Positions 42,921 through 58,397 of a DNA stretch of 64,000 bases are shown here, in pieces (the first letter of the stretch is position 1; the number at the start of each line of letters is the position of its first letter). The position numbers and the translations under genes are program-made. Origin of the DNA: an uncultured Acidobacteriota bacterium (lineage in GTDB: Bacteria; Acidobacteriota; Thermoanaerobaculia; Multivoradales; JAHEKO01); contig CAVQNG010000025.1 of the NCBI GenBank assembly GCA_963713825.1, positions 416,001 to 480,000 of the forward strand, in the 5' to 3' direction. Below the pieces are notes generated by a model. That model made no database searches, was not told where the DNA came from, and saw nothing but the letters and a program-made list of their open reading frames with translations.

Positions 42921-45395
42921 TCAGCCGAGCTTGTACAACCGCCCGAGGAGTGACTGCAGAGGGAAGCGCTGCAGTCGACCCGCGGCTGCGGCCTGCTCAT
43001 CGTAGGTCTGGACCTCGTCGGGCTCGATGCCGTCTCCCCACATCAAGATCGGCAGTGGGTCCGCAGCATGCTGTCCGCTCTCGGAGAGAGTGGCGTGGTC
43101 GGAGGCAACGATAATCCGCAGCGGTTGGGGGACATTGTCTACGAGCCAGCTCAATTCTTGATCGATTCTCTCCAGGAACTCCAATTTGAGGTCTGGCCTC
43201 CGATCGTGAGCCGCGATGTCGGCGCCTTTGAAGTGCAACACGACGAGGTCGTTGCGGCCCAGCTCCTTCAGAGCCGCTCGGACTTTGGCTTCGAGGTCGG
43301 TGTCCAGATTCGCCGTCATGCCCTCTTCGGTGACGGTCTTGCCGCCCAACCACTTGGCAATCCCGAGGAGGGTGCGGTCGCCACCCACGAACGCGACTCG
43401 CAGCGGCAGACCCCCGTCCTCCAAGGGCAGAAGGCGATGCAGCCGTCCCGCCCCGCGGGTCAGAATGGCGTTGGCTGGCGCCAGACCTTCGGCCGCTCGC
43501 TGGCGATTGATCGGGTGAGTCGCCAGAATTCGCCGCGCTTCCTGCTCGAAGAGGGCTAGAACTGCAGCCGTGAGAACGGCTTGGTCGTCGTCGGGATCCA
43601 CTGGCTTGGGGACGAGTGGTGGACCGGGAACGGCACCCTCGCCAGGATCACTACCCTGAATTGCCGGCGAAAGCCGCTCGCCACGGAGAACGATCGCCAG
43701 CCTGTGCTCGGTCCCGGCTTTGACTCGGACCTCCACTTCACGGTCGAGACCCGAGGGCAACGGCAGTCGGTCCAGTGCAGCTGCCAATTCGGCAGCCTGC
43801 TCTCGGATCCTTCCCGCCCGTCGGTCGATGACCCGCCCGTTTTCGTCCAGGGTCGCGAAATTGCCCCGCAGGGCAATGTCGCCGTCTTTGATCGACACGC
43901 CGGCTCCGAGAGCCTCGATCGGACCCCGCTTCATGGCTTGTGGTGATTGGCCGAGCAGTGCCAGATTACCCGCTGCGGTGTCGGGTACGACTCCGGGTGC
44001 CACCGGATCGGCAACTCCACACTGTCCTTCTCTCGCCAGGCGGTCGAGAGTCGGAGTTTTCGCAGCCTGCAGCGGGGTTCGACCGCCCAGGGCCCGGACC
44101 GGGCGGTCGGCCAGTCCGTCGATGACCACCAGTAGGGTGGCTTTGGGATGCTGGTGGGGAGTCCAATCCTCCTGACCGAGCTTGGGGAGGCTGCGCTCCA
44201 GGATGCTGGTCACGACTCTCATCGTGGCCTCGACAGGCGGGTCGCCTTCTGAGGTGTCGAGAATGGGTCGATCGTGCTGTTCGGCCTGCAGCAGAATGTA
44301 GTCGTGAATCGTTCGAATGGAGGCGAAGCTCTCGAGATAGCGCTCGGCGAGTCGCCCCCCGGCTCGGCTGCGGGCCAAGAAGCGGGTGCGGTGAGCCTCT
44401 TCGTTCAGCGTCGCCAAGACGAGAGGCACTTGGTAGACGGCGCCCTCGAGGTCGGGGAAGGGCACCATGCCGGGGTGGACGTGAACACCCTCGACGATGA
44501 TGCTCATGTTCTCGACCATGGCCCGCTCGACCACAGCCCGGACGCCGACGCAGACTCGAGTCGCCTGCTCCTCGAAGGTCGCGATGAGGCGTTGGGCGTG
44601 GTCGACTTCCTGCGCGGCGCCCAACCATGCCTCCGCGGAGGTCTGGTCGTAGGGCGGTGCCACCTCGAAGCTGGAGCTGTGGAGGGCCGGCAGAATGGAT
44701 GGAGTGAACACCATTCGCATCACCTGGCGGATCGTGTCGGTGGCGTTGATCCGATAGATCCGTAGGAGTGGTCCGAGCTCGAGAGCCAGGGTCGACTTGC
44801 CGGTGCCGCTGGCCCCTCCGACATAGATCACCAGCGGTCGGGGCAAGCGGTGGATTCTCCGAATGGCTCGATAGCGGAGAGCTGCCTGCTTGCCTTGGAG
44901 GCGCTCCAGGAGATCGCCGACGCGTCTGGCCACCTCGCCACTCTGCAGGACAGAGACGTTTTCGCTCAGGAGCTCGGCCTCGAGCTCCGTGACCAACCGG
45001 TAGGCGCGATCCAGATCGAGTCCGGCGGCATGGATGCTGCGCGCCAGCAGACCCCTGGAGAAGGGTTGCTCCTGGCCGGCGTAGACTACTCTCACTCCCT
45101 CGGTGTCGGGCGCCACCTCGCTGCGCAGTTGGCTGGCGTTGTCGTCGTTACGCTCCACCTGTTCGAGAACGAGATCTCGAAGCTCGCTGGTGCTCACCTC
45201 GTCACGGTCGCCGAGGCGATCACGAATGGCGCGTGCGATGGCATAGGCAGGGTCGAAATCCAGGCCACGCTGGATGAGATCGTGGGTGATCATGCCGCGC
45301 AGGAATCGCTGGCGACTGCCATCGGCAGAGACAACGAGCAGCTGCTTGCGGCCCTTGGAAGAGCTGCGAGGTTTGTCGTCCGGTTCGCTGGCCAT
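42921..45395 (-). CDS. Fusion: 2x ATP-cone + 2-phosphoglycerate-kinase-like P-loop domain + archaeal-type cofactor-independent phosphoglycerate mutase (ApgM)
   Basis: FLRGMI / PFSRGLLARS cones; GGASGTGKST, TDTIRQVMR, LHSSSF, IVEGVH; then IDGLADRP..G.TPL.AA.TP.LD, RGP.EALG, RGNFAT, DRRAGRI, HFK.AD.A.HD, SDHAT, H.ADPLP. Confidence 0.85.
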   Translation of the reverse strand: MASEPDDKPRSSSKGRKQLLVVSADGSRQRFLRGMITHDLIQRGLDFDPAYAIARAIRDRLGDRDEVSTSELRDLVLEQVERNDDNASQLRSEVAPDTEGVRVVYAGQEQPFSRGLLARSIHAAGLDLDRAYRLVTELEAELLSENVSVLQSGEVARRVGDLLERLQGKQAALRYRAIRRIHRLPRPLVIYVGGASGTGKSTLALELGPLLRIYRINATDTIRQVMRMVFTPSILPALHSSSFEVAPPYDQTSAEAWLGAAQEVDHAQRLIATFEEQATRVCVGVRAVVERAMVENMSIIVEGVHVHPGMVPFPDLEGAVYQVPLVLATLNEEAHRTRFLARSRAGGRLAERYLESFASIRTIHDYILLQAEQHDRPILDTSEGDPPVEATMRVVTSILERSLPKLGQEDWTPHQHPKATLLVVIDGLADRPVRALGGRTPLQAAKTPTLDRLAREGQCGVADPVAPGVVPDTAAGNLALLGQSPQAMKRGPIEALGAGVSIKDGDIALRGNFATLDENGRVIDRRAGRIREQAAELAAALDRLPLPSGLDREVEVRVKAGTEHRLAIVLRGERLSPAIQGSDPGEGAVPGPPLVPKPVDPDDDQAVLTAAVLALFEQEARRILATHPINRQRAAEGLAPANAILTRGAGRLHRLLPLEDGGLPLRVAFVGGDRTLLGIAKWLGGKTVTEEGMTANLDTDLEAKVRAALKELGRNDLVVLHFKGADIAAHDRRPDLKLEFLERIDQELSWLVDNVPQPLRIIVASDHATLSESGQHAADPLPILMWGDGIEPDEVQTYDEQAAAAGRLQRFPLQSLLGRLYKLG

Positions 45396-46055: not shown

Positions 46056-46222
46056 GTGACGTACTCCCTTGTTCCGATCCGTCTGTTCTTGCACTCTATC
46101 CCAAGGCGGCGGCGAGCCCTGGCCTACCGACCGACCCTGCTGCCGCAAGGTTGGTAGAATCAACAGCTTGCCTCGATCGACGGACTCACTCGACGCAACG
46201 CCTGAAGGGATCTGAGCTGACG

Positions 46223-48376
46223 ATGACGGTGACGGAAGACAAGAAATCGGCCTCGAACAAGACTGCTGCCAAGGCGGTCAACCTCAATCACCGGATCTAC
46301 TACTTCAACCGCGAGTTGAGCTGGCTCCAATTCAATGATCGGGTGCTCGAGGAGGCGCTCGATGAGCGTCACCCCCTTCTCGAAAGGGTCAAGTTCCTCT
46401 CGATCTTCTCGAGCAACCTGGACGAGTTCTTCATGATCCGGGTCTCTGGCCTGCGACGTCAGCTGGCCGGAGGAGCCCTGAAGGCGCCGCCGGACGGTAT
46501 GTCACCTGGCGAGCAGTTGAAGGCGATTCGAAGCCGCCTCGATCCCGCCCTCGAAGAGGCCGCAGACTGTTGGAAAGACGAACTGCTCCCCCAACTGAAG
46601 GACGCCGGTGTCAACGTGCTTGCCTACGAAGAGCTCAAGAGCAAGCAGCGGAAGCTCTTGCGTAAGCACTTCAAGAGAGAGATCTTCCCGGTCCTGACCC
46701 CGCTGGCATTCGATCCAGGGCATCCGTTCCCGCATATTTCCAACCTGAGCGTCAACCTGGCGGCAGTCATCGACGATCCGGGTAGGGGAGAGAAGTTCGC
46801 CCGGGTCAAGGTGCCTCATATGTTCCCGCGGTTTGTCCGCGTTCCCAGCGAGGAGAAAGCCGGGCGTGACGAGGAACGGGGACTGGAAGGATCCGAATCG
46901 ATGAACTTCGTCTGGCTCGAGGAGGTCATCGCTGCCAATCTGGACACTCTCTTCCCGGGTCTGAACGTCGAAGCCGCCTACCCCTTCCGGGTGACCAGGG
47001 ATGCCGATGTGGAGATCGAGGAAGACGAAGCCTCGGACCTGCTGTCGGCCATGGAGGTCGTGGTGGGGCAGCGTCAGTTCGGCTCGGCGGTGCGGCTCGA
47101 GGTCGACGCTCGAATGCCGGCTCGTGTGAGGGATATTCTGGTCGACAACCTGGGGCTGTCGCGTTATCAAGTCTTTGCCGTGAACGGTCCTCTGGGTCAG
47201 TCGGATCTCATGGAGCTGACCAAGCTCGATCTACCCGCTTTGAAAGACGCTCCGTTTACACCGAGTGAACCCAAGGCGCTCAAAGGTGAGGAGAGTGTCT
47301 TCTCCGTTCTCAAACGGCGCAATCTGCTGCTCTATCACCCCTACGACAGCTTCCGTCCGGTGGTCGACTTTGTCCGCGAAGCGGCCAAGGACCCGGAAGT
47401 CCTGGCCATCAAGCAAACGCTGTATCGGGTCGGACCCAACTCGCCAATTGTGGAAGCGCTGCGGCATGCCAGGGAAAACGGCAAGCAGGTTTCAGTGCTC
47501 GTGGAGCTGAAGGCCCGCTTCGATGAAGAGAACAACATCGTCTGGGCGCGGTCCTTGGAAGAGGCCGGGGTGCATGTCGTCTACGGTGTGATGGGCCTCA
47601 AGACCCACGCCAAGATGTGCCTGGTGGTTCGGCGGGAGCCGGACGGGGTCAAACGCTACGTCCATCTGGGCACCGGCAACTACAACCCGGTCACGGCGCG
47701 CATCTACACAGACCAGGGATATCTGACTGCCGATGCCGACATAACGGCCGATGTTTCGGAGCTCTTCAATGCCCTGACGGGGTACTCCAGAGAGGATCAT
47801 TACCGCAAGCTGCTGGTGGCGCCCGGCAAGATGCGAGAACAGATCCTGGAGAGGATTCAGCGCGAGATCGACTGCCACCGAAAGGATGGCAACGGTCACC
47901 TGGCGTTCAAGATGAACTCCCTGGTCGACAAGGCCTGCATTCGGGCTCTGTACGAAGCGTCGATCGCCGGTGTCAAGGTGGATCTCCAGATCCGCGGCAT
48001 CTGTTGCCTACGCCCTGGGGTGGAGAGGATCAGCGAGAACATCACAGTCACCTCGATTGTCGGGCGATTTCTGGAACACAGCCGCATCTACTACTTCCGC
48101 AACGGCGGGCAGGAAGAGATCCTGCTAGGCAGTGCCGATCTGATGCCGCGGAATCTCGGCGGCAGGGTCGAAACCCTGTTCCCGGTCGAGGACGAGAGAT
48201 TGAAGCGAGCTCTGCGGGACGAGATCCTCGATCTCCATCTGCACGACAATGTGCAGTCCAGTCAGCTGATGAGCGATGGTGGGTACGTGCGCCTGAGTCC
48301 TGGCGAGGGCGACCCGGTCATCGACTCTCAGAGCCTGCTTCTGAAGCAGGCGGGCTCCTGGCACCTGGACGAGTAG
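46223..48376 (+). CDS. ppk1: Polyphosphate kinase 1
   Basis: NRELSWL.FN.RVL, SNLDEFFM.RV, HPYDSF, ELKARFDE, KTHAK, TGNYN, GRFLEHSR, GSADLM.RNL. Confidence 0.98.
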   Translation: MTVTEDKKSASNKTAAKAVNLNHRIYYFNRELSWLQFNDRVLEEALDERHPLLERVKFLSIFSSNLDEFFMIRVSGLRRQLAGGALKAPPDGMSPGEQLKAIRSRLDPALEEAADCWKDELLPQLKDAGVNVLAYEELKSKQRKLLRKHFKREIFPVLTPLAFDPGHPFPHISNLSVNLAAVIDDPGRGEKFARVKVPHMFPRFVRVPSEEKAGRDEERGLEGSESMNFVWLEEVIAANLDTLFPGLNVEAAYPFRVTRDADVEIEEDEASDLLSAMEVVVGQRQFGSAVRLEVDARMPARVRDILVDNLGLSRYQVFAVNGPLGQSDLMELTKLDLPALKDAPFTPSEPKALKGEESVFSVLKRRNLLLYHPYDSFRPVVDFVREAAKDPEVLAIKQTLYRVGPNSPIVEALRHARENGKQVSVLVELKARFDEENNIVWARSLEEAGVHVVYGVMGLKTHAKMCLVVRREPDGVKRYVHLGTGNYNPVTARIYTDQGYLTADADITADVSELFNALTGYSREDHYRKLLVAPGKMREQILERIQREIDCHRKDGNGHLAFKMNSLVDKACIRALYEASIAGVKVDLQIRGICCLRPGVERISENITVTSIVGRFLEHSRIYYFRNGGQEEILLGSADLMPRNLGGRVETLFPVEDERLKRALRDEILDLHLHDNVQSSQLMSDGGYVRLSPGEGDPVIDSQSLLLKQAGSWHLDE

Positions 48377-48411
48377 GGTCCGTCAGACCGTCGTCGAGTT
48401 GAGTTGACTCC

Positions 48412-49212
48412 TCAACCCTTGCCCTTGTCGCTCTTCTTCGAGCCCTTCTTCTTGTTGTTGTCGTTTTTTTCGTTTGCGGCAGCCCGTTGGGCCTCGGGCT
48501 CTTGCAGATTCGCTTCCAGAGCGGCGATCAGGGTCTCCTGGGTCTTGACCCTGGCCCACAGCTTGTCGTTGCCCTCGATGATGGTCCAGGGTGCGGAGAG
48601 GGTGCTGGTCTTCCTAAGCATGTCGATCAGGGCCTCTTCGTAGAGGCCCCACTTGCGTCGGTTTCGCCAGTCTTCTTCTGTGAGCTTCCACTGCTTGTGG
48701 GGTGTCTTGCGGCGAGCCTCGAAACGGCTGAGCTGCTCCTCGGCACTGATCTCGAACCACAGTTTGACGAGGATCATGCCGTGATCGGTGAGCTGGCGCT
48801 CGAAGTGGTTGATCTCTCGATAGGCTCGCTTCCACTCGTCTTCGGTGGCGAAACCTTCGACCCTCTCGACGAGAACACGTCCATACCAGGAGCGGTCGAA
48901 GATCACGATCTGCTTGTCGTCTGGGGATTTCAGGCGACGCCAGAAGCGCCAAAGGTAATGATGGGTCTTGTCCTCTCCATCCGGCGCTGCGATCGAGTAG
49001 ACCTCGTAGCCACGAGGGTCGATCTTTTCGGTCGCTCGCCGGATGGAACCCCCCTTTCCCGCCGCGTCCCACCCTTCCACGACGACGATCAGCGACCGCT
49101 TTTGCTGGTACAGCCTGAATGCCAACTCGCGGAGCTTGAGTTGACAGTCCAGCTTGCGCTGCCTGTACTCCTCGTGGTCCAATCGCTTACTCAGATCGAC
49201 TGTGGGGAGCAT
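48412..49212 (-). CDS. ppk2: Polyphosphate kinase 2 family protein (C-terminal-half-like), Lys-rich tail
   Basis: EGWDAAGKGG, HYLWRFW, FDRSWYGRVLVERVEG, WKLTEEDWRNR. Confidence 0.92.
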   Translation of the reverse strand: MLPTVDLSKRLDHEEYRQRKLDCQLKLRELAFRLYQQKRSLIVVVEGWDAAGKGGSIRRATEKIDPRGYEVYSIAAPDGEDKTHHYLWRFWRRLKSPDDKQIVIFDRSWYGRVLVERVEGFATEDEWKRAYREINHFERQLTDHGMILVKLWFEISAEEQLSRFEARRKTPHKQWKLTEEDWRNRRKWGLYEEALIDMLRKTSTLSAPWTIIEGNDKLWARVKTQETLIAALEANLQEPEAQRAAANEKNDNNKKKGSKKSDKGKG

Positions 49213-49976
49213 CAGTAGTCTTCCTCATCGTCGTCGATCTCGTCGAAGCCGGGTACTTCGCAACCGTGGCGTTCCAGCCCCTCTTCCATGGCTTCGATGA
49301 TGGCCTGAAGGACCCGCACGCGTGTCCACCGGTGATCTGTTGCTGCGACCAGGGTCCATGGCCCCCATTCGGTCTCGGTTCTTTCGAGCATCTCCTCGAC
49401 CGCCAGCCGGTAGTCACCATAGCGCTCGTTCTGGGCCCAGTCCTCGGGCTCCACCTGCCAGCTGGTTCTGGGATCCGATTCCAAGTCCTTCAAACGGCTA
49501 GCCTGCTCCTTCTCGTCGATATGGAGAAAGAGCTTGGCCAGAAGATAGCGATCGTCGACCAGCGCCTGCTCGTAAGCCGTGATGTCGTTGTAGGCCTGCG
49601 TCAACTGCACCGGTTCGATCATGCCATCGACTCGCTCCTCCAGGACTCGGCCGTACCAGCTGTGGTCGAAGATGGCGATCTCGCCCCAGTTGGGCAGTTT
49701 GGCCCAGAAGCGCCACATCCAGGGTAGAAGGCTTTCGAAGGTGCGGGGCTCACGAATGGCGTGGAGACTGAAACCCCTCGGTTCCAGTCGCTGGGTGATC
49801 TTGCTGATGACCGAGCCCTTTCCAGACGCATCCCAGCCTTCCAGGACGACGAGCGTCGCCAACTTCTCCTTCCAGCAGGCGCGCTGCAATTGGTGAAGCC
49901 GGCGTTGGAGCTCTGGAAGCTGCTCCTTGTAGTCGGTCTTCGATAGCTCTCGGCTGAGATTTAGGGCTTCCAGCAT
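49212..49976 (-). CDS. ppk2: Polyphosphate kinase 2 family protein (N-terminal-half-like)
   Basis: EGWDASGKG, PWMWRFW..LP..G.I.IFDHSWY; TGATG overlap with the next PPK2. Confidence 0.9.
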   Translation of the reverse strand: MLEALNLSRELSKTDYKEQLPELQRRLHQLQRACWKEKLATLVVLEGWDASGKGSVISKITQRLEPRGFSLHAIREPRTFESLLPWMWRFWAKLPNWGEIAIFDHSWYGRVLEERVDGMIEPVQLTQAYNDITAYEQALVDDRYLLAKLFLHIDEKEQASRLKDLESDPRTSWQVEPEDWAQNERYGDYRLAVEEMLERTETEWGPWTLVAATDHRWTRVRVLQAIIEAMEEGLERHGCEVPGFDEIDDDEEDY

Positions 49977-50026
49977 TTCGGTTCAGCGACCGGTTCGTGA
50001 ACTGTTCAGCGTTCGGTTGGATTGTC

Positions 50027-50773
50027 TCATAGAGAGAGGCGACTGACGATCTCCGACCAGAGGGCTTCGTAGGCCCGGGTAGGCTCCGCTGATGGGGCGA
50101 AGGAGGGCAGAGGTGCACGACGCAATCCCATCTGCTCGACCAGGCTGGAGTACGGAATGGCTGTTTCGAGCATGTCCGGATGATGCTCGGTGGGTGAGGC
50201 GCAGATGCGTTTGTGGAGGGACTTGCGCCGGTCCACCATGCACAGGAACGGATAGAGTCGTGGCCGCGTGGCGCCCCTGTCGCGCAGATGCTGATCGAGT
50301 TGATCGAGCGTCCGCAATGAGAGCGTTGTCGGAATCGTTGGAGACAAGAGAACGTCTGCCGCGACGAAGATGCTCTCGGAGACCAGGGAGATGCTCGGAG
50401 CGCAATCGAGGAAGAGGTAGTCGTACTGCAACGAGAGGGGAAGCAGCAGGCTTGCCATCTGCCTGGTCGGCTTCTTGCTCTGCACCAGGTCCAGGTCCAT
50501 GTTGCGATAGGTGAAGTCGGCCGGCAAGATGTCGAGGCCCTCGAAATCCGTGCCCCGAATCGTCGCATCGAGGGGCCGCTTGCCTTTCAGGAGCTTCTTC
50601 GCACCGCCTTTTACTTTGGCTCGGACCCTGAAGTAGAAGGTGGCTGCAGCCTGGGGATCCAGGTCCCAAATCAACGTGCGGGCGCCGCCCCTGGCCGCCA
50701 GGTATGCCAGGTTGACCGCCGTCGCCGTCTTCCCGACCCCACCTTTGATGTTGTACGTGGCGAAGACCCTCAC
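50027..50773 (-). CDS. Orphan ParA/Soj-family ATPase
   Basis: Deviant Walker A KGGVGKT, DLDPQ, LDCAP; GTGA overlap with the CHAD gene stop; no parB adjacent. Confidence 0.92.
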   Translation of the reverse strand: MRVFATYNIKGGVGKTATAVNLAYLAARGGARTLIWDLDPQAAATFYFRVRAKVKGGAKKLLKGKRPLDATIRGTDFEGLDILPADFTYRNMDLDLVQSKKPTRQMASLLLPLSLQYDYLFLDCAPSISLVSESIFVAADVLLSPTIPTTLSLRTLDQLDQHLRDRGATRPRLYPFLCMVDRRKSLHKRICASPTEHHPDMLETAIPYSSLVEQMGLRRAPLPSFAPSAEPTRAYEALWSEIVSRLSL

Positions 50774-52347
50774 GCGGCCACCGTCTTCGTTGGCTTGAAG
50801 AGCGCCCGGAAACGGACCCGGTTCTTCTTGGAGGCGAACTTCGCGAACTCCTGCTGGAAGCGCTGTCGCTCCACCGCCTGCCGTGTCTCCAACCTGTCGA
50901 CCAGACGGCCCAATGCCATCAGGGTCTCCTCCGTGGCCAGGCCTTCCTGGAACATGTCGTGGGCAAAGCGCTGCAAACTGTCCTGTTGGACCTCCAGGTC
51001 GTTGAAGTCTCCCAGGTTGTCCTGCAGGCGCTTGAGCGCTTTGATGAGGGCCCCGATTTCGCGCTCGTCATAGAGGCTGCGGAAGAACTCGAGCAGATAA
51101 CGCAGCTTCTTGCAGTCGATTCGCAACCTGTGGAGCAGCTCTGGTGGGGCGTCGCTGCCGTTGACGCGACCCTGTTTGAGGACTTTGCGATAGGTCTTCC
51201 AGATGCGGGACGAGGCCGCACGCAAGATCGGCTCCTGCGCCAGGGGAGGAGCATCGGTCTCTGGAAGAGTCTCGTCCAGGAACGACTCCCAGTCTTGAAT
51301 CAATCGGGTGAACCGTTCTGAGTCCAGTTGCTCCACCAGCCTCGTATGCTCGAGGCGCTGGTGCCGGTTGAGGTACTCGTGCAGGGGTTCCAGGTGAGGT
51401 CCCAGGTGTTCGGGCAGGCTGTCGCGATACTCGGGCATCTTCAGGAGATAGACGTCGAGGTCACGATTGGTGCCGGTCGCCTGTCCGAGCCATGCGAACT
51501 CGCGCCTGAAGTGCTCGACGATGGGTGGCGGATAGACGTCCTTGATCTGAGTCAGGGCGGCTCGGGTACGACGAACGCCGACGCGGAAATCGTGCAAGAA
51601 CTCGGTGTCGAGGTCCTGTCGGAGGCCCGCCTCGTTGTTCTGGATCGCACTCAGCAGCGTCTTGTGAATCCGTTTCGAGGCTTCATCGCTGCGCATCTCG
51701 GGGGAGAGTCGGACCTCGAATCTCGAGGGGCCGGCGGTCGGATCCTCTCCCAGCAGATCCAGGGCCGTCATGAGCTGATCCGTCGGCGCCAGGGGAAGTT
51801 GTTGCTCGCGCTCCAGGTAAGCCAGGAGAGCCTTGAACTCCTTGGCGTACCCTCGTACCGGCTCTGCCGTCAGGACAGCGGGAAGCTCCAACGGCAGAGC
51901 TGTCGATTCCGGGCTGTTGACCGAGCCTTGGCTGAAATGAAGTCGCGCCACGGTCTTCTGGTTGCCGTCGAGGACGTGTAGCGTTTCTCCTCGGCTCGCA
52001 ATTTCCAAACGTGGCAACAAGCGCCGCATCTCCACCACAGATTCGAGCTCTGTCCTGAAGGGGCCTGGAGGGAGATCCCAAGCAAAACTGGGGCTGCTGT
52101 CGAGGCGGAGCCGAAAACGGGCTGGACCGTCCAAGGCGCTCCAGCGCAAGATCGTGGCTCGTGCATCCTTGGTGGAGAGGAGGCTTCCCCCATCTTTGAA
52201 GAGGCGCCAGTCAAAAGTGTCCAAGTAGGTGCCGCGAGTGTCTCGGTGAGTCTCGAGCCTTCCAGGGAACTGCTCTGCCGACGATTGGAGAACCGCCCGA
52301 CCTTGGCTCGGAGACTCGACTTGAAAGCTGATCGGGATCGGGTTCAT
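50770..52347 (-). CDS. CHAD-domain protein with N-terminal CYTH-like region
   Basis: YLDTFDWRL; D.EFLHDFRV.VRR.R, RDLDV, LHRLRI.CKKLRYLLEFF, LK.LQD.LG.FND. Confidence 0.9.
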   Translation of the reverse strand: MNPIPISFQVESPSQGRAVLQSSAEQFPGRLETHRDTRGTYLDTFDWRLFKDGGSLLSTKDARATILRWSALDGPARFRLRLDSSPSFAWDLPPGPFRTELESVVEMRRLLPRLEIASRGETLHVLDGNQKTVARLHFSQGSVNSPESTALPLELPAVLTAEPVRGYAKEFKALLAYLEREQQLPLAPTDQLMTALDLLGEDPTAGPSRFEVRLSPEMRSDEASKRIHKTLLSAIQNNEAGLRQDLDTEFLHDFRVGVRRTRAALTQIKDVYPPPIVEHFRREFAWLGQATGTNRDLDVYLLKMPEYRDSLPEHLGPHLEPLHEYLNRHQRLEHTRLVEQLDSERFTRLIQDWESFLDETLPETDAPPLAQEPILRAASSRIWKTYRKVLKQGRVNGSDAPPELLHRLRIDCKKLRYLLEFFRSLYDEREIGALIKALKRLQDNLGDFNDLEVQQDSLQRFAHDMFQEGLATEETLMALGRLVDRLETRQAVERQRFQQEFAKFASKKNRVRFRALFKPTKTVAA

Positions 52348-52363
52348 GACTCGGTACCGAAGG

Positions 52364-52741
52364 TCACTTGTGCTTCTTGCCTTTCCTCTTCTTCTTGCCT
52401 TTCCTCTTCTTCTTGTTCGTTCCCTTGCTTTTTCTCTGGTCCTTCTTCTTCTTGCCGTCAGACTTCTTATTACTCTTCTTGCCGCCCTTTTTCTTTTTCG
52501 CCTTCTTGTCCTTCTTTTTCGACTTGCTGGTCGATTCAGTGACCTCGGGCGAAGGCTGCCGCGATCGAAGGATGGCTTGGCCGATCGCCGCCGCTCTCGC
52601 CGTACCGAAACCAGGGAGGGAGGCCAGCTCTTGGGGTGAGAGTGCGGCCAACGCTTCCACGGTCTCGATACCGTTGCCGGCCAGAACCTGGGCGGTGTGC
52701 GGACCGATTCCGGGTATGTCGGTGACTTTGGCTTGACCCAT
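52364..52741 (-). CDS. Helix-hairpin-helix protein with poly-lysine C-terminal tail
   Basis: IPGIGP and LPGFG HhH motifs; about 31 Lys in the last 53 residues; GGAGG SD. Confidence 0.85.
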   Translation of the reverse strand: MGQAKVTDIPGIGPHTAQVLAGNGIETVEALAALSPQELASLPGFGTARAAAIGQAILRSRQPSPEVTESTSKSKKKDKKAKKKKGGKKSNKKSDGKKKKDQRKSKGTNKKKRKGKKKRKGKKHK

Positions 52742-52892
52742 AGCTCTTCCTCCAGTCCCTCCCCTGTTCGACAGAGGAGTTTACAACGGCAGATTCAAAG
52801 GGGGCGAAGAATGCCCTCGTTGCCTCTAGCCTAGTAGCCCAAGGTTCCGGCTGCAGCGAGATTTCTCTCACGGCCGAGGCGCGAGCCTCAGT

Positions 52893-53678
52893 CTAGCCGT
52901 ACCGGCCTTCGATGTAGTCGGCTGTCTCCTGATGCGCCGGCGTCACGAAGAGCTCTTCCGTGGGCGTGTGCTCGATCACCTTGCCCAACAGCATGAAAAT
53001 GCACTCCTCGCTTGCTCGACGAGCCTGGGCCATGTTGTGCGTGACGATGAGGATGGTGTATTCGCCACGCAGCTCCCAGATGAGCTCTTCCACTGCCTCC
53101 GTCCCCGTCGGGTCGAGAGCCGAGCAGGGCTCGTCCATCAGCAGTACGGCTGGTTTGACGGGCAGGAGTCTTGCGATGCAGAGCTTCTGCTGCTCTTCGA
53201 GAGAAAGCTCGATGGCGGGTCGATCCAACCGGTCCTTGACCGTTTCCCAGAGCAGGACCTCCCGGAGCGCCTTCTCGACGATCTCGTCCCGTTCACTAGT
53301 CGAGATCTTCTGGCTTCCCTTGGCGAGACGGTAGCCGAAGATCACGTTCTGCCGGATCGATAGGGGCAGAGGGTTCGGCCTCTGGAACACCATGCCGATG
53401 TGTTGGCGGACCTGACCGAGATCTACCTCGGGTCCGTAGATGTCGTGGCCGAGGACCAGGATGCTGCCCGTCGTCCTCACATACCCCAGGCGTTCGTTGA
53501 TTCGGTTGACGCTGCGCAAGAAAGTCGTCTTGCCACAGCCCGAGGGTCCGATCATCGAAGTGATGATGCCTTGCTTGATCTCGAGATCGATGTCGTACAG
53601 CGCCTGGAAGGTGCCGTACCAGAGGTTCAGCTTCTCGGTCTCGATGGCGAGTGCCTCTGTGGGCGGCCCGTTATCCAA
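52893..53678 (-). CDS. pstB: Phosphate ABC transporter ATPase PstB, copy with degenerate signature
   Basis: GPSGCGKTT, GMVFQRPNP, LSLEEQQKL, MDEPCSALDP, VTHNMAQA, YIEGRYG; TTG start inferred from GGAGGG. Confidence 0.9.
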   Translation of the reverse strand: MDNGPPTEALAIETEKLNLWYGTFQALYDIDLEIKQGIITSMIGPSGCGKTTFLRSVNRINERLGYVRTTGSILVLGHDIYGPEVDLGQVRQHIGMVFQRPNPLPLSIRQNVIFGYRLAKGSQKISTSERDEIVEKALREVLLWETVKDRLDRPAIELSLEEQQKLCIARLLPVKPAVLLMDEPCSALDPTGTEAVEELIWELRGEYTILIVTHNMAQARRASEECIFMLLGKVIEHTPTEELFVTPAHQETADYIEGRYG

Positions 53679-54459
53679 AACGGCCCTCCACATAGGCCTG
53701 AGTGCGTTCGTCGCTCGCCTTGCGGGTGAATAGATCTTCGGTGTCGGCCACTTCGACCAGCTCACCCATGAGAAAGAACGCCGTTCGATCAGCCAACCGG
53801 CGCGCCTGCTGCACCAGGTTGGTGACCAGGACGATGGTTACCTCCTCTTTGAGGACCTTGAGGACGTCTTCGATGCGCATGGTCGTAACCGGGTCGATGG
53901 CGATGGAGAACTCATCCAGCAGCAGCAGGTCCGGATCCTGGGACAGCGCTCGAGCGATGGTCAAGCGCTGCTGTTGGCCGCCCGAAAGCAGGCTGCCGAG
54001 GGAGTTGAGCCGGTCCTTGACCTCGTCCCAGAGAGCCGCTCGCTGGAGGCACCGCTCGACGATCTCGTCGAGCACGGCTTTCTTCTTGACTCCGCTCAGG
54101 CGTGGCGCCAGGGAGACGTTGTCGTAGATGGTCATCGGGAGGCCGACGGGAAGAGGGAAAACGACACCGATGTGACGGCGCAAGGCGTAGACATTGCGCC
54201 ACTTGTCGACGTCACGGCCATCGAAGCGTATGGTCCCATCGACTCTCATTCCGGGCGTGAAGAGATCCATCCGATTCAGGGCTCGCAAGAAGGAGGTCTT
54301 GCCGCTGTTGGCCGGTCCGATGATGCCGAAGATCTCGTTCTCTCGGATATCCAGGCTCACGTCCTCAAGGGCGATCTTCTGCCCGTAGCGGATGGTCAGA
54401 TTCCTGACTTCCACTTTGGGCCTAGCGTCACCCGGCTGGGAGGCGGTCTGTCCTACCAC
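53671..54459 (-). CDS. pstB: Phosphate ABC transporter ATPase PstB, copy lacking Q-loop Gln and H-loop His
   Basis: GPANSGKTS, GVVFPLP, LSGGQQQRL, LDEFSIAIDP, VTNLVQQA, YVEGRFG. Confidence 0.9.
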   Translation of the reverse strand: MVGQTASQPGDARPKVEVRNLTIRYGQKIALEDVSLDIRENEIFGIIGPANSGKTSFLRALNRMDLFTPGMRVDGTIRFDGRDVDKWRNVYALRRHIGVVFPLPVGLPMTIYDNVSLAPRLSGVKKKAVLDEIVERCLQRAALWDEVKDRLNSLGSLLSGGQQQRLTIARALSQDPDLLLLDEFSIAIDPVTTMRIEDVLKVLKEEVTIVLVTNLVQQARRLADRTAFFLMGELVEVADTEDLFTRKASDERTQAYVEGRFG

Positions 54460-55322
54460 TTCTTCTTACCTCGGAGATACATGCGAAAGCCGATCGACAC
54501 GGCGTTCATGGCGAGGACCATGCCGATGAGCACGAGGGCGACACCGAAAGGCATCGCCTCCGGGACGCCCGGAACCTGCGTCGAGATCACGAACAGGTGA
54601 AGCGACATGGCCATGGTCTGATCGAACACGCTCTGCGGCAGGAATGGAAGGAAGAACGCCGCACCGGTGAACATGATGGGCGCTGTCTCGCCTGCGGTCC
54701 TCGAGACTTCGAGGATGACGCCGGTGAGGATACCGCTGATCGAATTGGGCAGCACGACGTGGCGAATGGTCTGCCATCGGCTGGCGCCCATGTTCCAGCA
54801 GGCTTCCCGGAAGGCATGCGGTACCGCCTGTAGCGATTCACGCGTCGCCACGATGACGACGGGCAGGGTCATGATGGCCAGGGTCAGGCTGGCGGCGAGG
54901 ATGCTCGTGCCGAAACGGAAGAACAGGACGAAGGCACCAACCCCGAAGAGCGCGTGAACAATGGAGGGAACCCCCGCCAGGTTGATGATCGCCAGGTTGA
55001 TCATCCGGGTCAGCCAGTTGTCCGGAGCGTACTCGCTGAGATAGAGGGCCGCGGCGACCCCGACGGGAACCGACGCCAGCAGTGCTACCGCAACCAGCCA
55101 GATGGTTCCCACGAGAGCTGGAAAGATCCCTCCCGCCGTCATCCCGTCCTTGGGCTCGGTGAAGAGAAAGTCGACGGAGATGATGGGTCCACCTTTGTAG
55201 ACCAGCACGCCAAGGATCACCAGGACCGGCAGGATGAGCAAGACCGTCATCAGGAGGAACAGCAGGCCCCACAGGCGCTCCACCTTGTGATTGCGGATGT
55301 TGAGCTCGGTGGCCTCGAACAC
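54453..55322 (-). CDS. pstA: Phosphate ABC transporter permease PstA
   Basis: GGIFPALVGT, YLSEYA, NLAGVPSIV, SRTAGETAP. Confidence 0.95.
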   Translation of the reverse strand: MFEATELNIRNHKVERLWGLLFLLMTVLLILPVLVILGVLVYKGGPIISVDFLFTEPKDGMTAGGIFPALVGTIWLVAVALLASVPVGVAAALYLSEYAPDNWLTRMINLAIINLAGVPSIVHALFGVGAFVLFFRFGTSILAASLTLAIMTLPVVIVATRESLQAVPHAFREACWNMGASRWQTIRHVVLPNSISGILTGVILEVSRTAGETAPIMFTGAAFFLPFLPQSVFDQTMAMSLHLFVISTQVPGVPEAMPFGVALVLIGMVLAMNAVSIGFRMYLRGKKKW

Positions 55323-55333
55323 GACGTCAAGCC

Positions 55334-56248
55334 CTATTTCTTGCGGATCCCGCGGACAACCAGATCGGCTGTCAGATTGATGATGAAGGTGATGAGAAAC
55401 AGGAAGATTCCCAGCGTGAAGAGGGCTCGGTAGTGGTCCGATCCCACGGCCGTCTCACCGAGCTCGGCTGCGATGGTGGCGGTCAGCGCCCTGACCGAGT
55501 CGAAGATACTGGTGGGTAGATTGATCGAGTGGCCGCTGGCCATCAGGACTGCCATCGTTTCGCCGAAGCCCCTACCCACGCCCAGCAGCACCGCGGCGAC
55601 GAGACCATTCTTGGCGGCTGGAATCACTACCCTGAGGATGACCTGCCAGCGTGTCGCACCCATGGCCTCTGCGGCTTCCCGATAGGTGTCGGGTACGGCC
55701 TTGAGCGAGTCCTCGGCAATCGTGGTCATGATCGGGGCAGCCATCAGTCCGAGAATGAACCCGGCATTGAGCACGTTCAAGCCCACCGGCACGTTGAAGA
55801 GCTTGATGATCAGGGGATTCATGATGCTCAGTCCGATGAAACCCCAGACCACGGACGGGATGGCGGCCAGCAGCTCCACCAGCACCTTGAGGACTTCTCT
55901 GGTCTTGCCGGTGGCGAACTCTCCGATGTAGATCGCCGCGCCAAGAGAAAAGGGTACCGCCACCAACATCGCCAGTCCGGTAACGCTGGCTGTGCCCGCA
56001 ATCAGCGCTAGCGCACCGTAGGTCGGATTGTGCTCAGAGGTGGGTCGCCAGCGTGGCGAAGTGAAGAATTCGGCAATATCGAATCGGCCGAGGAGAAAGG
56101 GAAGGCCCTCCTTCGTGATAAAGACGAAGATGCCGATGATGAAGATGATGGCCGACACTCCGCCGACGAAGACAAGAACCTGCACTGCCTTGTCGATGTA
56201 CCAAGCAAGGTCACGACGGTCGAGGTCGGCACCAGGAGGATGGCTCAG
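55334..56248 (-). CDS. pstC: Phosphate ABC transporter permease PstC, probable CTG start
   Basis: ELLAAIPSVV.G, GR.FGETMAV.M..G; CTG at 56248 overlaps the phoU stop (CTGA), with GGAGGG 6 nt upstream. Confidence 0.93.
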   Translation of the reverse strand: MSHPPGADLDRRDLAWYIDKAVQVLVFVGGVSAIIFIIGIFVFITKEGLPFLLGRFDIAEFFTSPRWRPTSEHNPTYGALALIAGTASVTGLAMLVAVPFSLGAAIYIGEFATGKTREVLKVLVELLAAIPSVVWGFIGLSIMNPLIIKLFNVPVGLNVLNAGFILGLMAAPIMTTIAEDSLKAVPDTYREAAEAMGATRWQVILRVVIPAAKNGLVAAVLLGVGRGFGETMAVLMASGHSINLPTSIFDSVRALTATIAAELGETAVGSDHYRALFTLGIFLFLITFIINLTADLVVRGIRKK

Positions 56249-57336
56249 GTCGCGCCCTCCCCGCGAAGCGTCTCCATGAGCTCACGAATCGAGTGCTTGA
56301 GATTCTGGAATGCCTCTTCCATCAGCGCCGCGGATCGTTCGGCGTCGAGATCGCTGGGAATGGGATCGATATCCCACTCGAGAAGTACTGTGCGAAACGG
56401 GGTCTCTTCAATTCGGGAGCCGGAGCCTTTGCCTACAGCGACGATGACGTGAAAATCGGCCAACTGGTCCACGGTGTGGTCCAGTCTCTTCGGAGAGAGT
56501 GAGTCTCCATCCAGGCCCCGGGCGTCCATGAACACCTCGGTGGCGGGCAGCAGACGATCTGCCGGGGCCCAGCCGGCGCTCTGATAGACACCGCCGTCGG
56601 GAAAAGCCTTGCGAGCGAATGCTTCTGCCAGCTGGCTCAAGGCATCATTACGTTCGTCGAAGAAGAGGATCCGGTATACCTTCTCACTCTTGGTCTCGCC
56701 GGCAACAGCGAAGAGGGTGTCCTCACAGATGTTCTTGGACTGATCGGCCACTCGGCCGATGCGGTTGAAGATCACCAGCGTAGCGAAGAGATCCCGGATG
56801 GGTCTGGCGCCCGCTTCACCTTCCTGGAGCAGATCTCGGAAGACCTTCTGGTAGGTGCTCTCGATCTGGCTCGCCATTCCCTTGGTGCCTCTGGCAAGCT
56901 CTGGGTTCTGCGTGTTGAACGACTCCATGGCCTGGCGAAACATGCGCTGAGCCTGGTCGGCGATCAACTGGACGTCGCTGGCAACCGAGCCACTGGGGAC
57001 CGTTGACAACTGAATCGCTTCCCGGGCTATGGCTACCGCGTAGTCTCCGATTCTCTCGAGCTCGACGTCCAAACGCAGCACTGAAGAGACGAACCGTAGG
57101 TGCCCCGCACTCGGCAGGTGGCGGGCTATGAAGCCATAGCAGAGCTTGTCGATCGTCCGAATTTCTCGATTGATGGGCTTGTCGCCCATGACAACCTGAT
57201 TCGCCAGAGCTCGATCGAGCTTCAGGGCCGATCGCACGGCTCTCTCGAGGGCCGTTTCGACCTGTTCGCCAACCTCTTCGATGCGCTCGCGAATCGCAGC
57301 GAGGTCCTCTTCCAGACGTTTCTCGTAGTGGGTCAT
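56245..57336 (-). CDS. phoU: PhoU fused to a degenerate LMW-PTP/ArsC-like domain
   Basis: D..IN, LERIGDYA, R.ADQSKNICE; then RILFFDERNDALSQLAEAFA...SAG..PA...PK.L...W.ID. Confidence 0.85.
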   Translation of the reverse strand: MTHYEKRLEEDLAAIRERIEEVGEQVETALERAVRSALKLDRALANQVVMGDKPINREIRTIDKLCYGFIARHLPSAGHLRFVSSVLRLDVELERIGDYAVAIAREAIQLSTVPSGSVASDVQLIADQAQRMFRQAMESFNTQNPELARGTKGMASQIESTYQKVFRDLLQEGEAGARPIRDLFATLVIFNRIGRVADQSKNICEDTLFAVAGETKSEKVYRILFFDERNDALSQLAEAFARKAFPDGGVYQSAGWAPADRLLPATEVFMDARGLDGDSLSPKRLDHTVDQLADFHVIVAVGKGSGSRIEETPFRTVLLEWDIDPIPSDLDAERSAALMEEAFQNLKHSIRELMETLRGEGAT

Positions 57337-57366
57337 GGCCTTGCGACCCCTTTCTTCTCAGCGACC

Positions 57367-58251
57367 TCAGCCGCAGGTGACAGTCCGAACTGGAGCGTAT
57401 CCCTTTTCCTGAATGATGCACTGGCCCTCGTCACTCAGGATCCAGTCGAGGTATTCCTTGATGGCTCCCTCGGGTTGCCCCGAGGTGTACATGAAGAGCG
57501 GGCGGGCGATGGGATACGTGCGATCGATGGCGGTCGCGACAGAGGGTGCGATGCAATCACTGCCCTCCTCCGCAGCGACACAGGGCATCTTCACCTCGTG
57601 GGTCGCATAGGCCAGGCCACTGTAGCCGATTGCGCAAGGTGTGTTCAGGACCAGATCTACGACGTCCTTGGACCCGTGCATGTCTCGAGAGCCCATCTTG
57701 TAGTCGCGCCCCCTGCCGAGCACGGCTTCCTTGAAGTACACGTAAGTCCCGGAGTTGTTCTGACGACTGACGCGGACGATCTCGTTGCTGTCGCATCCGG
57801 GAATCTCGACCCCGATCTGATCCCAGGACTCGACGGGTCCTTCCTCACCGTAGATGTCGGCCAGCTGGGCCAGCGTGAAGCTCTCGACCGGATTGTCGGT
57901 GTGCAGGAAGACGGCCAGGGCGTCATAGCCAACCGTCCACTCCACTGGCTCGATACCGTTGGCCCGAGCCATCTCGAACTCCTTGTCCTTCATCTTCCGG
58001 CTGGCATTGGCAATGTCCACCGTGCCGTTGATCATGGACGAGATCCCGGTTCCGGAACCGCCGCCCGTCACCGCGACCGCCACGTTCGGGTTGACCTCCT
58101 TGTACTCCTCGGCCCAGGCCTGGGCCACGTTGACGAGGGTGTCGGAGCCCTTGTTCTGGATCACGCCTCGTCCGCCTCTGCTTCCATCCTGGCTCCTGGG
58201 GCCGCATGCGGCCAGTGCTAGCAAGACGACCAAAGTCCAGTACTTGTTCAT
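57367..58251 (-). CDS. pstS: Phosphate-binding lipoprotein PstS
   Basis: Lipobox LAAC, KGSDT, GGGSGTG, NASR, SRQNNSGTY, YPIARPL; AAGGAG SD. Confidence 0.93.
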   Translation of the reverse strand: MNKYWTLVVLLALAACGPRSQDGSRGGRGVIQNKGSDTLVNVAQAWAEEYKEVNPNVAVAVTGGGSGTGISSMINGTVDIANASRKMKDKEFEMARANGIEPVEWTVGYDALAVFLHTDNPVESFTLAQLADIYGEEGPVESWDQIGVEIPGCDSNEIVRVSRQNNSGTYVYFKEAVLGRGRDYKMGSRDMHGSKDVVDLVLNTPCAIGYSGLAYATHEVKMPCVAAEEGSDCIAPSVATAIDRTYPIARPLFMYTSGQPEGAIKEYLDWILSDEGQCIIQEKGYAPVRTVTCG

Positions 58252-58378
58252 GATCAGCTCTCCTTGATTGTGTCTCGATATGGGTGTGGAACTCTCGATG
58301 GGTTTGAATCGGTTCGAGACACCGGCCGCAGTTCTGGTCTCGACCGAAGCCGGGTCCATCGGAACTCTAGACGAAGCC

Positions 58379-58397
58379 TGTGACATTCGTGTGACAG
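58379..58397 (-). promoter_or_regulatory. PHO box (PhoB-type 11-bp direct repeat)
   Basis: Minus strand CTGTCACACGA-ATGTCACA: TGTCACA repeated at an 11-bp period, about 130 bp upstream of pstS. Confidence 0.8.

Follow-up and report, generated by a model that had tools for sequence, protein, structure and literature searches.

The window analysed here, a 64,000-nucleotide stretch of contig CAVQNG010000025.1 from an uncultured Acidobacteriota bacterium, encodes a ParA/MinD-type ATPase whose gene overlaps that of a protein comprising a CYTH-like N-terminal domain and a CHAD domain (hereafter the partner). An earlier interpretation of the same DNA (the sequence-only reading) had proposed that this ParA spaces or segregates polyphosphate (polyP) granules, with the CHAD protein as adaptor. 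We found that the two genes form a pair that is conserved in several phyla, and a structural model predicts that their products bind each other. On balance, and with modest confidence, we favour the view that the pair uses ParA to drive the positioning or segregation of polyP granules, and that the CYTH-like + CHAD protein would serve both as granule adaptor and as ParA partner.

Conservation of the CHAD-ParA gene pair

A scan of one genome per species yielded 162 loci with relatives of the window ParA, the best 80 of which (52-93% identity) were kept. In 79 of these 80 loci, and in 79 of the 79 that can be judged, the ParA gene is directly preceded on the same strand by coding sequence homologous to CHAD; the 80th (L028) starts 16 nt before the ParA gene at a contig edge. 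An exact 4-nt overlap of the CHAD stop and the ParA start is observed in 64 of the 80. The loci are distributed over Actinomycetota (67), Pseudomonadota (6), Acidobacteriota (5) and Myxococcota (1), and one is unassigned (Eremiobacteraeota according to the record title). The CHAD frame is split into two or three pieces in seven loci, mostly from metagenome-assembled genomes, and these may be sequencing indels or pseudogenes. Judged by these counts, the CHAD-ParA arrangement is conserved far beyond chance. The ParA clade tracks CHAD, as the sequence-only reading had anticipated, and the lack of conserved linkage to CHAD or ppk genes that it had named as speaking against it was not observed.

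A second, separate sample comprised 301 Acidobacteriota genomes, in which ParA was counted at E<=1e-50. The ParA is present in 17 of them and adjoins a CHAD gene, by coordinates and Pfam, in 14 of the 17. All 17 genomes have a CHAD gene somewhere, and 181 of the 301 have one overall; ParA therefore accompanies a minority of CHAD genes and, among these genomes, is never seen without a CHAD gene. In two genomes (G093 and G256), a ParA of the clade, with 64% and 58% identity to that of the window, is located away from the CHAD gene (loci L092 and L094); one of the two has as neighbours an OmpA-like gene and an unassigned 353-residue open reading frame (ORF), the other genes for an M50 peptidase and a hybrid histidine kinase. 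One ParA orthologue that adjoins a CHAD gene (L107, genome G015, C5:6101-6823) has one in-frame TAG, and may be a pseudogene or reflect a sequencing error. The ParA of Marinobacter pMAQU02, which was considered as a member of the clade, is 40% identical, is not linked to CHAD and probably falls outside the clade.

The sequence-only reading had treated five genes as one system, and this part was not borne out: the gene for a small helix-hairpin-helix protein with a polylysine tail (HhH-polyK), together with a pair of PPK2 genes, accompanies the pair only in the five Thermoanaerobaculia loci of the 80. The conserved unit is the CHAD + ParA pair alone. When 110 neighbours at 20 of 21 dereplicated loci, at most three per side, were assigned to Pfam families, no further gene proved to be widely common, the maxima being PfkB (5), MFS (4), TetR (4), PPK2 (3), PPK1 (2), PhoU (2) and CYTH (2); the genes were called with a GC3 filter, and L067, where the gene caller missed the pair, was left out.

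Nevertheless, ppk1, ppk2 or pst genes adjoin the pair in several separate lineages. Five Acidobacteriota genomes have ppk1 no more than about 5 kb away from the pair, and three of these (G110, G100 and G165) are outside the genus from which the window comes. A two-domain PPK2 (762-residue ORF) and PPK1 precede the pair in the Myxococcota locus L044, and a pst operon follows it in the gammaproteobacterial locus L021. In Acidithiobacillus, folD, ppk, parA and CHAD have been described as conserved together, with no function proposed for parA in the available section of that study (PMC10892726, section 3.3).

The two genes are also found fused. In locus L079, a single 795-residue ORF encodes CHAD (residues 49-523) followed by ParA (residues 542-788). 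Of 280 longer homologues, the best 120 include 19 with Pfam CHAD and ParA and another 19 with ParA and CYTH. Ten longer homologues were inspected, seven of which came from these two groups: CHAD comes first and ParA second in P0126, P0127, P0132 and P0144, while ParA comes first and CYTH second in P0121, P0122 and P0124. In the ParA-CYTH fusion P0121, a CHAD gene of 591 residues still overlaps the start by 4 nt. A metagenome scan returned three loci. Some fusions may be assembly errors, though they recur in many clusters. An apparent fusion in G110 was rejected, the long open frame consisting of two frames.

The ATPase, its partner and their predicted contact

The window ParA exhibits the intact KGGVGKT motif (residues 10-16) and the DRRK patch (181-184) that the sequence-only reading had described. 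The deviant Walker A motif with its signature lysine (K10-G-G-V-G-K15-T), the Walker A' aspartate pair D37/D39 and the Walker B residue D123 are all present. In 24 orthologues from five phyla, K10, K15, D37, D39, D123, D181 and K55-G56-G57 are invariant, and R183 and K184 nearly so. R183 aligns with the arginine of the 'DGR' in Thermus thermophilus Soj, which we take to be a DNA-binding position in Soj. The best solved relatives found with a ParA profile are chromosomal ParA/Soj proteins (8ray, 4e-34; 1wcv, 7e-27), and McdA is matched at 6e-13. No NCBIfam equivalog cut-off is reached by this ParA (63 bits against 180 for ParA_partition NF041546; 27 against 213 for MinD TIGR01968), and there is no C-terminal extension beyond the last helix that could serve as a membrane-targeting sequence.

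The genome holds seven other ParA-like matches, five of which span nearly the whole protein; the best is 33% identical. This closest paralogue (L002, G000 C3:1397353-1398102) is another ParA with no ParB_N gene nearby. In a protein search, more than 120 clusters were 62-99% identical to the window ParA. A quick maximum-likelihood tree of 55 rows separated 50 family members from the five own-genome paralogues (SH-aLRT 99), with the fused and the CHAD-unlinked forms of ParA nested within the family. By these comparisons, the window ParA falls into a separate clade, with 52-93% identity among its members, which is linked to CHAD and CYTH genes.

As had been noted from the sequence, the cluster contains no ParB_N gene; the genome has two, each of which adjoins another ParA paralogue that is 29-30% identical to the window ParA. 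This bears on the most improbable but one of the alternatives, in which the pair would partition the DNA of a chromosome, chromid or plasmid, the CHAD protein or the granule would be an anchor and small DNA-binding proteins would be the centromere binders. Such small proteins exist, since in Paracoccus a 62-residue protein with weak similarity to RHH_1 and ParG precedes the CHAD-ParA pair, but both this RHH-like protein and HhH-polyK are lineage-specific. At most loci no small gene precedes the pair, and the gene that does so is often divergent. Neither ParB nor parS is present, a relative (E<=1e-30) occurs in just 8 of 72,556 plasmid records, and most loci are on chromosomal contigs of megabase size. 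We therefore regard partition of DNA as highly improbable.

The partner gene is the sole CHAD gene in the genome. The AlphaFold2 model of the partner, built with 24 sequences, has a pLDDT of 91.7 and a pTM of 0.86, and comprises two domains. The C-terminal domain scores above the Pfam cut-off for CHAD and adopts the fold of two four-helix bundles typical of the family. In Foldseek, it matches the polyP-bound CHAD domain of Chlorobium tepidum (6qva) with an E-value of 6e-18, a TM-score of 0.93, a root-mean-square deviation of 1.8 and 36% identity. Mutation of H253, R256, R260, R296, R438 and K441 has been reported to weaken polyP binding by the C. tepidum domain, and CHAD domains bind polyP, not nucleic acids, and localise to granules, according to the available text of the same study (PMC6537752). 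The corresponding residues here are H252, R255, R259, R295, K436 and K439, so that all six basic residues are kept, with a change from arginine to lysine at K436; H252, R255, R259 and R295 are invariant in the orthologue alignment. These properties are established for relatives, and with its contact residues kept the CHAD domain of the partner is a candidate polyP binder that may localise to granules. The residue numbers used in that study (PMC6537752, as far as its text is available) differ by about 204 from those of the chains in 6qv7 and 6qva; 3e0s was also compared. This offset suggests that the C. tepidum parent protein has about 520 residues and an N-terminal domain, an architecture like that found here.

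Residues 1-205 of the partner form a separate beta-barrel domain that the sequence-only reading had not recognised, and which matches full-length YgiF (5a60, E 1e-10) and TTM/CYTH proteins (E 1e-4 to 1e-3). Residues 1-209 give no match to Pfam CYTH (PF01928) even at E<=1, and the ExExK motif is absent from this domain both in the window protein and in the 24-sequence alignment. ExExK is the N-terminal catalytic motif of CYTH/TTM enzymes. As the barrel fold matches while the Pfam match and the motif are missing, we term this domain CYTH-like and consider it probably non-catalytic. Its invariant residues are D43, T44, K131, R135, G166 and Y167. Representatives of the domain number 1364 at E<=1e-3, or 483 at the stricter limit of E<=1e-10, and are mostly proteins of 515-545 residues.

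A model of the complex, which the sequence-only reading had suggested as a check, favours an interaction. Modelling of ParA with the full partner gave ipSAE values of 0.83, 0.83 and 0.81, against 0.00 for the best of three controls; the pLDDT of the partner is at least 84, and the three runs share 100% of their contacts. The predicted interface comprises residues 28-30, 48-51, 72-74, 76, 78-79, 81, 118, 219 and 247 of ParA and residues 78-81, 94, 96, 124, 129-132 and 164-167 of the N-terminal domain of the partner, and includes the invariant residues G30, D76, D81 and R219 of ParA and K131, G166 and Y167 of the partner. As we know of no solved ParA-CYTH complex, the score is unlikely to reflect a memorised structure. 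The model supports, and does not prove, binding of the partner by ParA. The role of ParA partner and adaptor that had been assigned to the CHAD protein thus passes these computational tests, with one revision: the predicted contact is made by the CYTH-like domain and not by the CHAD domain.

That the two genes adjoin each other without functional meaning is scarcely credible. All that speaks for it is the general reminder that gene order by itself does not establish function, and it is contradicted by the 79 of 79 judgeable loci, by the overlap shared by 64 of 80, by the repeated fusions and by the score of 0.83 compared with 0.00. A different use of the ATPase would be for ParA to take polyP instead of DNA as its polyanionic matrix, and to pattern or oscillate on the granule surface. 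Binding of DNA by ParA is electrostatic and directed at the backbone phosphates, and the window ParA family exhibits additional invariant basic residues, namely K55, R90 and R219. DNA binding could also account for these residues, as could the predicted interface with the partner, of which R219 is a part. In addition, polyP binding is already provided by the CHAD protein. We consider a polyP matrix for ParA very unlikely.

A proposed model for granule positioning

In the model that we favour, the core is a two-gene cassette, comprising the CYTH-like + CHAD protein and a translationally coupled, dedicated ParA-type ATPase. The CHAD domain would coat polyP granules, as suggested by the binding properties of its relatives and by the kept contact residues, and the CYTH-like domain, thereby held on the granule, is predicted to bind ParA. 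ATP-bound ParA dimers would sit on the nucleoid, which is consistent with the Soj-like fold and with the conserved arginine at the Soj position. Hydrolysis of ATP, triggered by the partner at the granule, would then create a local zone depleted of ParA, and the granules would move apart, become evenly spaced and be inherited, as for carboxysomes with McdAB. We infer the nucleoid binding, the ATPase stimulation and the transport. In this organism, the cassette would act within a phosphate/polyP supercluster of pst, two PPK2 genes and ppk1, and the small HhH-polyK protein, which appears to have been gained here, may bridge DNA and polyP, a suggestion that is speculative. In some lineages, a canonical CYTH or a NUDIX gene is fused or linked to the pair, which hints that positioning is coupled to polyP turnover. 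Whether CHAD-ParA is, more broadly, a widespread and undescribed system for positioning polyP granules, the first ParA/MinD system with an inorganic polymer as cargo and one in which a catalytically degenerate CYTH domain replaces the basic peptide of the partner, is in our view evenly balanced.

Several points weigh against this model. The predicted contact involves a folded domain and not a short basic N-terminal peptide as in ParB, McdB and MinE, and no activating lysine or arginine was identified. The modelled complex contains ParA as a monomer, and the calibration of the ipSAE mark, which 58 of 80 solved complexes attain compared with 2 of 110 mismatched pairs, applies roughly, given the custom-built alignments. 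ParA is apart from the CHAD gene in three of the 17 ParA-bearing Acidobacteriota genomes (G093, G256 and G065), the ParA of G065 being just 44% identical to that of the window. The distribution is patchy, with 17 of 301 genomes, and the pair therefore cannot be a general positioning mechanism. Neither ppk nor pst genes are found within 8 kb in 67 of the 80 loci, all from Actinomycetota. The signs of expression, described below, are a weak hint, as the metatranscriptome contigs are short and carry-over of DNA is possible.

The main alternative is that ParA is an ATP-dependent switch or assembly factor on the granule, with neither a nucleoid track nor transport, that sets the number, size or coat of granules or recruits PPK or CYTH enzymes via the CHAD protein. 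Many ParA/MinD relatives, such as BcsQ and FlhG, are localisation or assembly switches and not motors, and the JGI names of relatives of the window ParA include 'BcsQ'; the closest solved relatives, however, are chromosomal ParA/Soj proteins (8ray, 1wcv) and not MinD or BcsQ, and the arginine at the Soj position is kept. A switch would also fit the folded, enzyme-like domain with which contact is predicted, as well as the variants in which a canonical ExExK CYTH is fused to or adjoins ParA, together with a NUDIX gene, which suggests a link to polyP chemistry. Yet the CYTH-like domain of the partner itself lacks ExExK. We consider such a switch unlikely, while giving it more weight than any other alternative.

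Compared with known systems, the CHAD-ParA cassette would work like McdAB or ParABS and is a member of neither. The logic of its two genes is that of McdA-McdB: an orphan ATPase of the ParA type, accompanied by neither ParB nor parS, and a protein encoded next to it that would mark a membrane-less cargo other than DNA; a nucleoid-associated, evenly spaced cargo is expected (PMC13556221, in its available text). In contrast to McdA, the ParA described here is nearer to Soj/ParA, by the profile matches given above, and its KGGVGKT motif keeps the signature lysine. The partner, folded and composed of CYTH-like and CHAD domains, does not resemble McdB, and the cargo would be an inorganic polymer. 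With ParABS and Soj-Spo0J, the system shares the ATPase fold, the motifs, the Soj 'DGR' arginine and a translationally coupled partner gene; it differs from ParABS in the absence of a ParB_N gene or centromere from the cassette and in the gene order, with the partner preceding ParA. An orphan ParA with nonspecific DNA binding, as proposed here, and a protein or condensate as cargo is found in PpfA-TlpT, which acts on cytoplasmic chemoreceptor clusters; both cargo and adaptor are different here.

The two-domain architecture of CYTH/TTM plus CHAD is that of Escherichia coli YgiF and of the TTM-CHAD phosin of Ralstonia eutropha. Unlike that of YgiF, the CHAD domain here belongs, with that of C. 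tepidum, to the pore-bearing 'long' type, and the N-terminal domain lacks the Pfam CYTH match and ExExK. To our knowledge, no ParA partner has been described for YgiF. Localisation of CHAD proteins to polyP granules is reported in the available portions of two studies (PMC6537752, PMC9239181). HhH-polyK likewise resembles AlgP of Pseudomonas aeruginosa, a histone H1-like, lysine-rich protein that helps to space polyP granules, in combining a small domain with a polycationic tail (PMC9239181 and PMC11894788, as far as available). HhH-polyK is, in addition, encoded with polyP genes. There is no sequence relation between the two: the N-terminal domain of HhH-polyK is HhH_5 and its tail is rich in lysine, glycine and serine, whereas the tail of AlgP consists of KPAA repeats and AlgP acts without a dedicated ATPase.

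A ParA-like mechanism binding both polyP and nonspecific DNA was proposed by Henry and Crosson in 2013, who cited PpfA-TlpT as a model for polyP (PMC3806658, in its available text). The accessible part of a 2025 review (PMC11894788) names no such ParA-polyP system; nor does that of a 2024 review on ParA/MinD proteins (PMC11407121), in which the terms 'polyphosphate' and 'CHAD' do not occur. In August 2026, spacing of polyP in Synechococcus elongatus was reported in mBio to be independent of McdAB; the available text describes the positioning mechanism as "yet-to-be-discovered" and names CHAD proteins as candidates (PMC13556221). In the literature on polyP granules, ParA/MinD, CHAD, CYTH and phosin, with subscription journals and supplements outside coverage, we found no ParA dedicated to polyP granules. 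For the question of how bacteria place and pass on these granules, CHAD-ParA provides a concrete and testable gene pair, and the model of the complex yields an interface that can be mutated at the level of residues. Cultured carriers are Paracoccus marcusii, P. aestuarii, Prauserella oleivorans and Saccharomonospora, as well as Acidithiobacillus according to the available text of PMC10892726. If the granule-positioning model is true, it would give a function to the large class of 'CYTH and CHAD domain' proteins, as represented by the 1364 sequences mentioned above, and a new type of partner to ParA biology.

Surroundings of the pair and variant arrangements

The features of the window that relate to the pair are listed in Table 1. 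The five co-directional ORFs on the minus strand, encoding HhH-polyK, the CHAD protein, ParA and two PPK2 proteins, agree with the sequence-only reading, as do the junctions: HhH-polyK and CHAD are separated by 16 nt, CHAD and ParA overlap at GTGA, PPK2a follows ParA after 50 nt, and the two PPK2 genes overlap by one base at TGATG. Again as described there, the cluster lies between pst genes and ppk1; the former are arranged as pstS-phoU-pstCAB, and the latter is convergent.

Table 1 Features of the CHAD-ParA cluster and of its surroundings (window coordinates)
Feature	Position	Strand	Description and matches
HhH_5 protein with Lys-rich tail (HhH-polyK)	52364-52741	-	125 residues; Pfam HHH_5 51.5 bits, cut-off 27
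CYTH-like + CHAD protein	50770-52347	-	525 residues; Pfam CHAD 210 bits, residues 230-459, cut-off 25.6
CYTH-like N-terminal domain, residues 1-205	51733-52347	-	Fold matches of the model
CHAD domain, residues 209-513	50809-51723	-	Pfam CHAD; 6qva fold match
ParA/MinD-type ATPase	50027-50773	-	248 residues, GTG start; Pfam AAA_31 105 bits (cut-off 27), CbiA 48 bits
PPK2 'a', single-domain	49212-49976	-	254 residues; Pfam PPK2 221 bits
PPK2 'b', single-domain, Lys-rich C-terminal tail	48412-49212	-	266 residues; Pfam PPK2 284 bits
ppk1 (polyphosphate kinase 1)	46151-48376	+	Four PPK1 Pfam domains; NF003921 1009 bits, cut-off 701
Phosphate uptake genes pstS, PhoU-domain gene, pstC, pstA, ABC ATPase, pstB	52893-58386	-	
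pstB	52893-53765	-	TIGR00972 PstB 315 bits, below cut-off 343

In HhH-polyK, the HhH_5 (PF14520) match spans residues 6-53 and is followed by a lysine-rich tail of about 60 residues. The gene is upstream of CHAD in five of five Thermoanaerobaculia loci and in no other of the 80. The family comprises 18 clusters of 109-127 residues, with tails that are 39-65% lysine and arginine. The bridging of DNA and polyP by this protein, suggested by analogy with AlgP, lies outside the core and is lineage-specific as well as speculative, if plausible. The two PPK2 proteins differ in one motif, DHSWY in PPK2a and DRSWY in PPK2b, and each matches the second half alone of TIGR03708, the model for two-domain polyphosphate:AMP phosphotransferase (PAP), with 258 (a) and 362 (b) bits compared with a cut-off of 548. 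From these matches, the two may act as a split, heteromeric PAP.

A scan of positions 48200-53100 for promoters and terminators found no promoter-like and no terminator-like sites, compared with 0.6 and 4.5 in shuffles, a result that is uninformative for an acidobacterium. Three metatranscriptome runs contained just 5-10% of the sampled words, in short contigs that leave the stretch partly uncovered, which is uninformative either way. Short contigs identical to the window fall on PPK2b, PPK2a and ParA, and one contig that differs by three bases crosses the HhH/CHAD junction.

The Pfam matches in the phosphate uptake cluster are PBP_like_2, PhoU, two BPD_transp_1 and two ABC_tran. ABC ATPase genes occur twice in a row in this cluster, at 53671-54459 and 52893-53765 (both on the minus strand), and the 363-residue PhoU-domain gene (56245-57336, minus strand) is located between pstS and pstC and not at the end of the cluster. 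Just past ppk1, an 824-residue ORF (42921-45395, minus strand) exhibits an unusual combination of phosphoglycerate-mutase-like and metalloenzyme domains and a weak match to ATP-cone.

Among the variant arrangements, the C-terminal CYTH part of the ParA-CYTH fusions has no matching ORF in the 80 loci. In these fusions (P0121-P0125, P0128, P0129 and others; L097 414-2048), ParA is joined at its C-terminus, via a long linker, to a canonical CYTH, and the CYTH part of P0124 has the motif ELEIK. They form a supported subclade, the sister of which (P0161, P0185, P0191) comprises ParAs with an unassigned C-terminal extension of 190-270 residues. In a further set of fusions, a ParA of the clade (48-50% identity) is followed by a C-terminal region that weakly matches SBP_bac_3 (E 7e-6 for P0174); fusions of this type are P0174, P0183, P0194, P0198, P0200, P0203, P0208, P0215-P0217 and P0236.

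The replicons of Paracoccus aestuarii and P. marcusii (L111 4299-7651; L113 3288-6653) exhibit a row of genes annotated as hypothetical (62 residues), CHAD, AAA ATPase, CYTH and NUDIX, in which the AAA ATPase is 42-43% identical to the window ParA. No homologues of the 62-residue RHH-like protein were found in the other loci. It has a basic N-terminal tail and weak matches to RHH_1 (E 0.0035) and ParG (E 0.047), and is a second small protein of DNA-binding type, unrelated to HhH-polyK, that precedes a CHAD-ParA pair.

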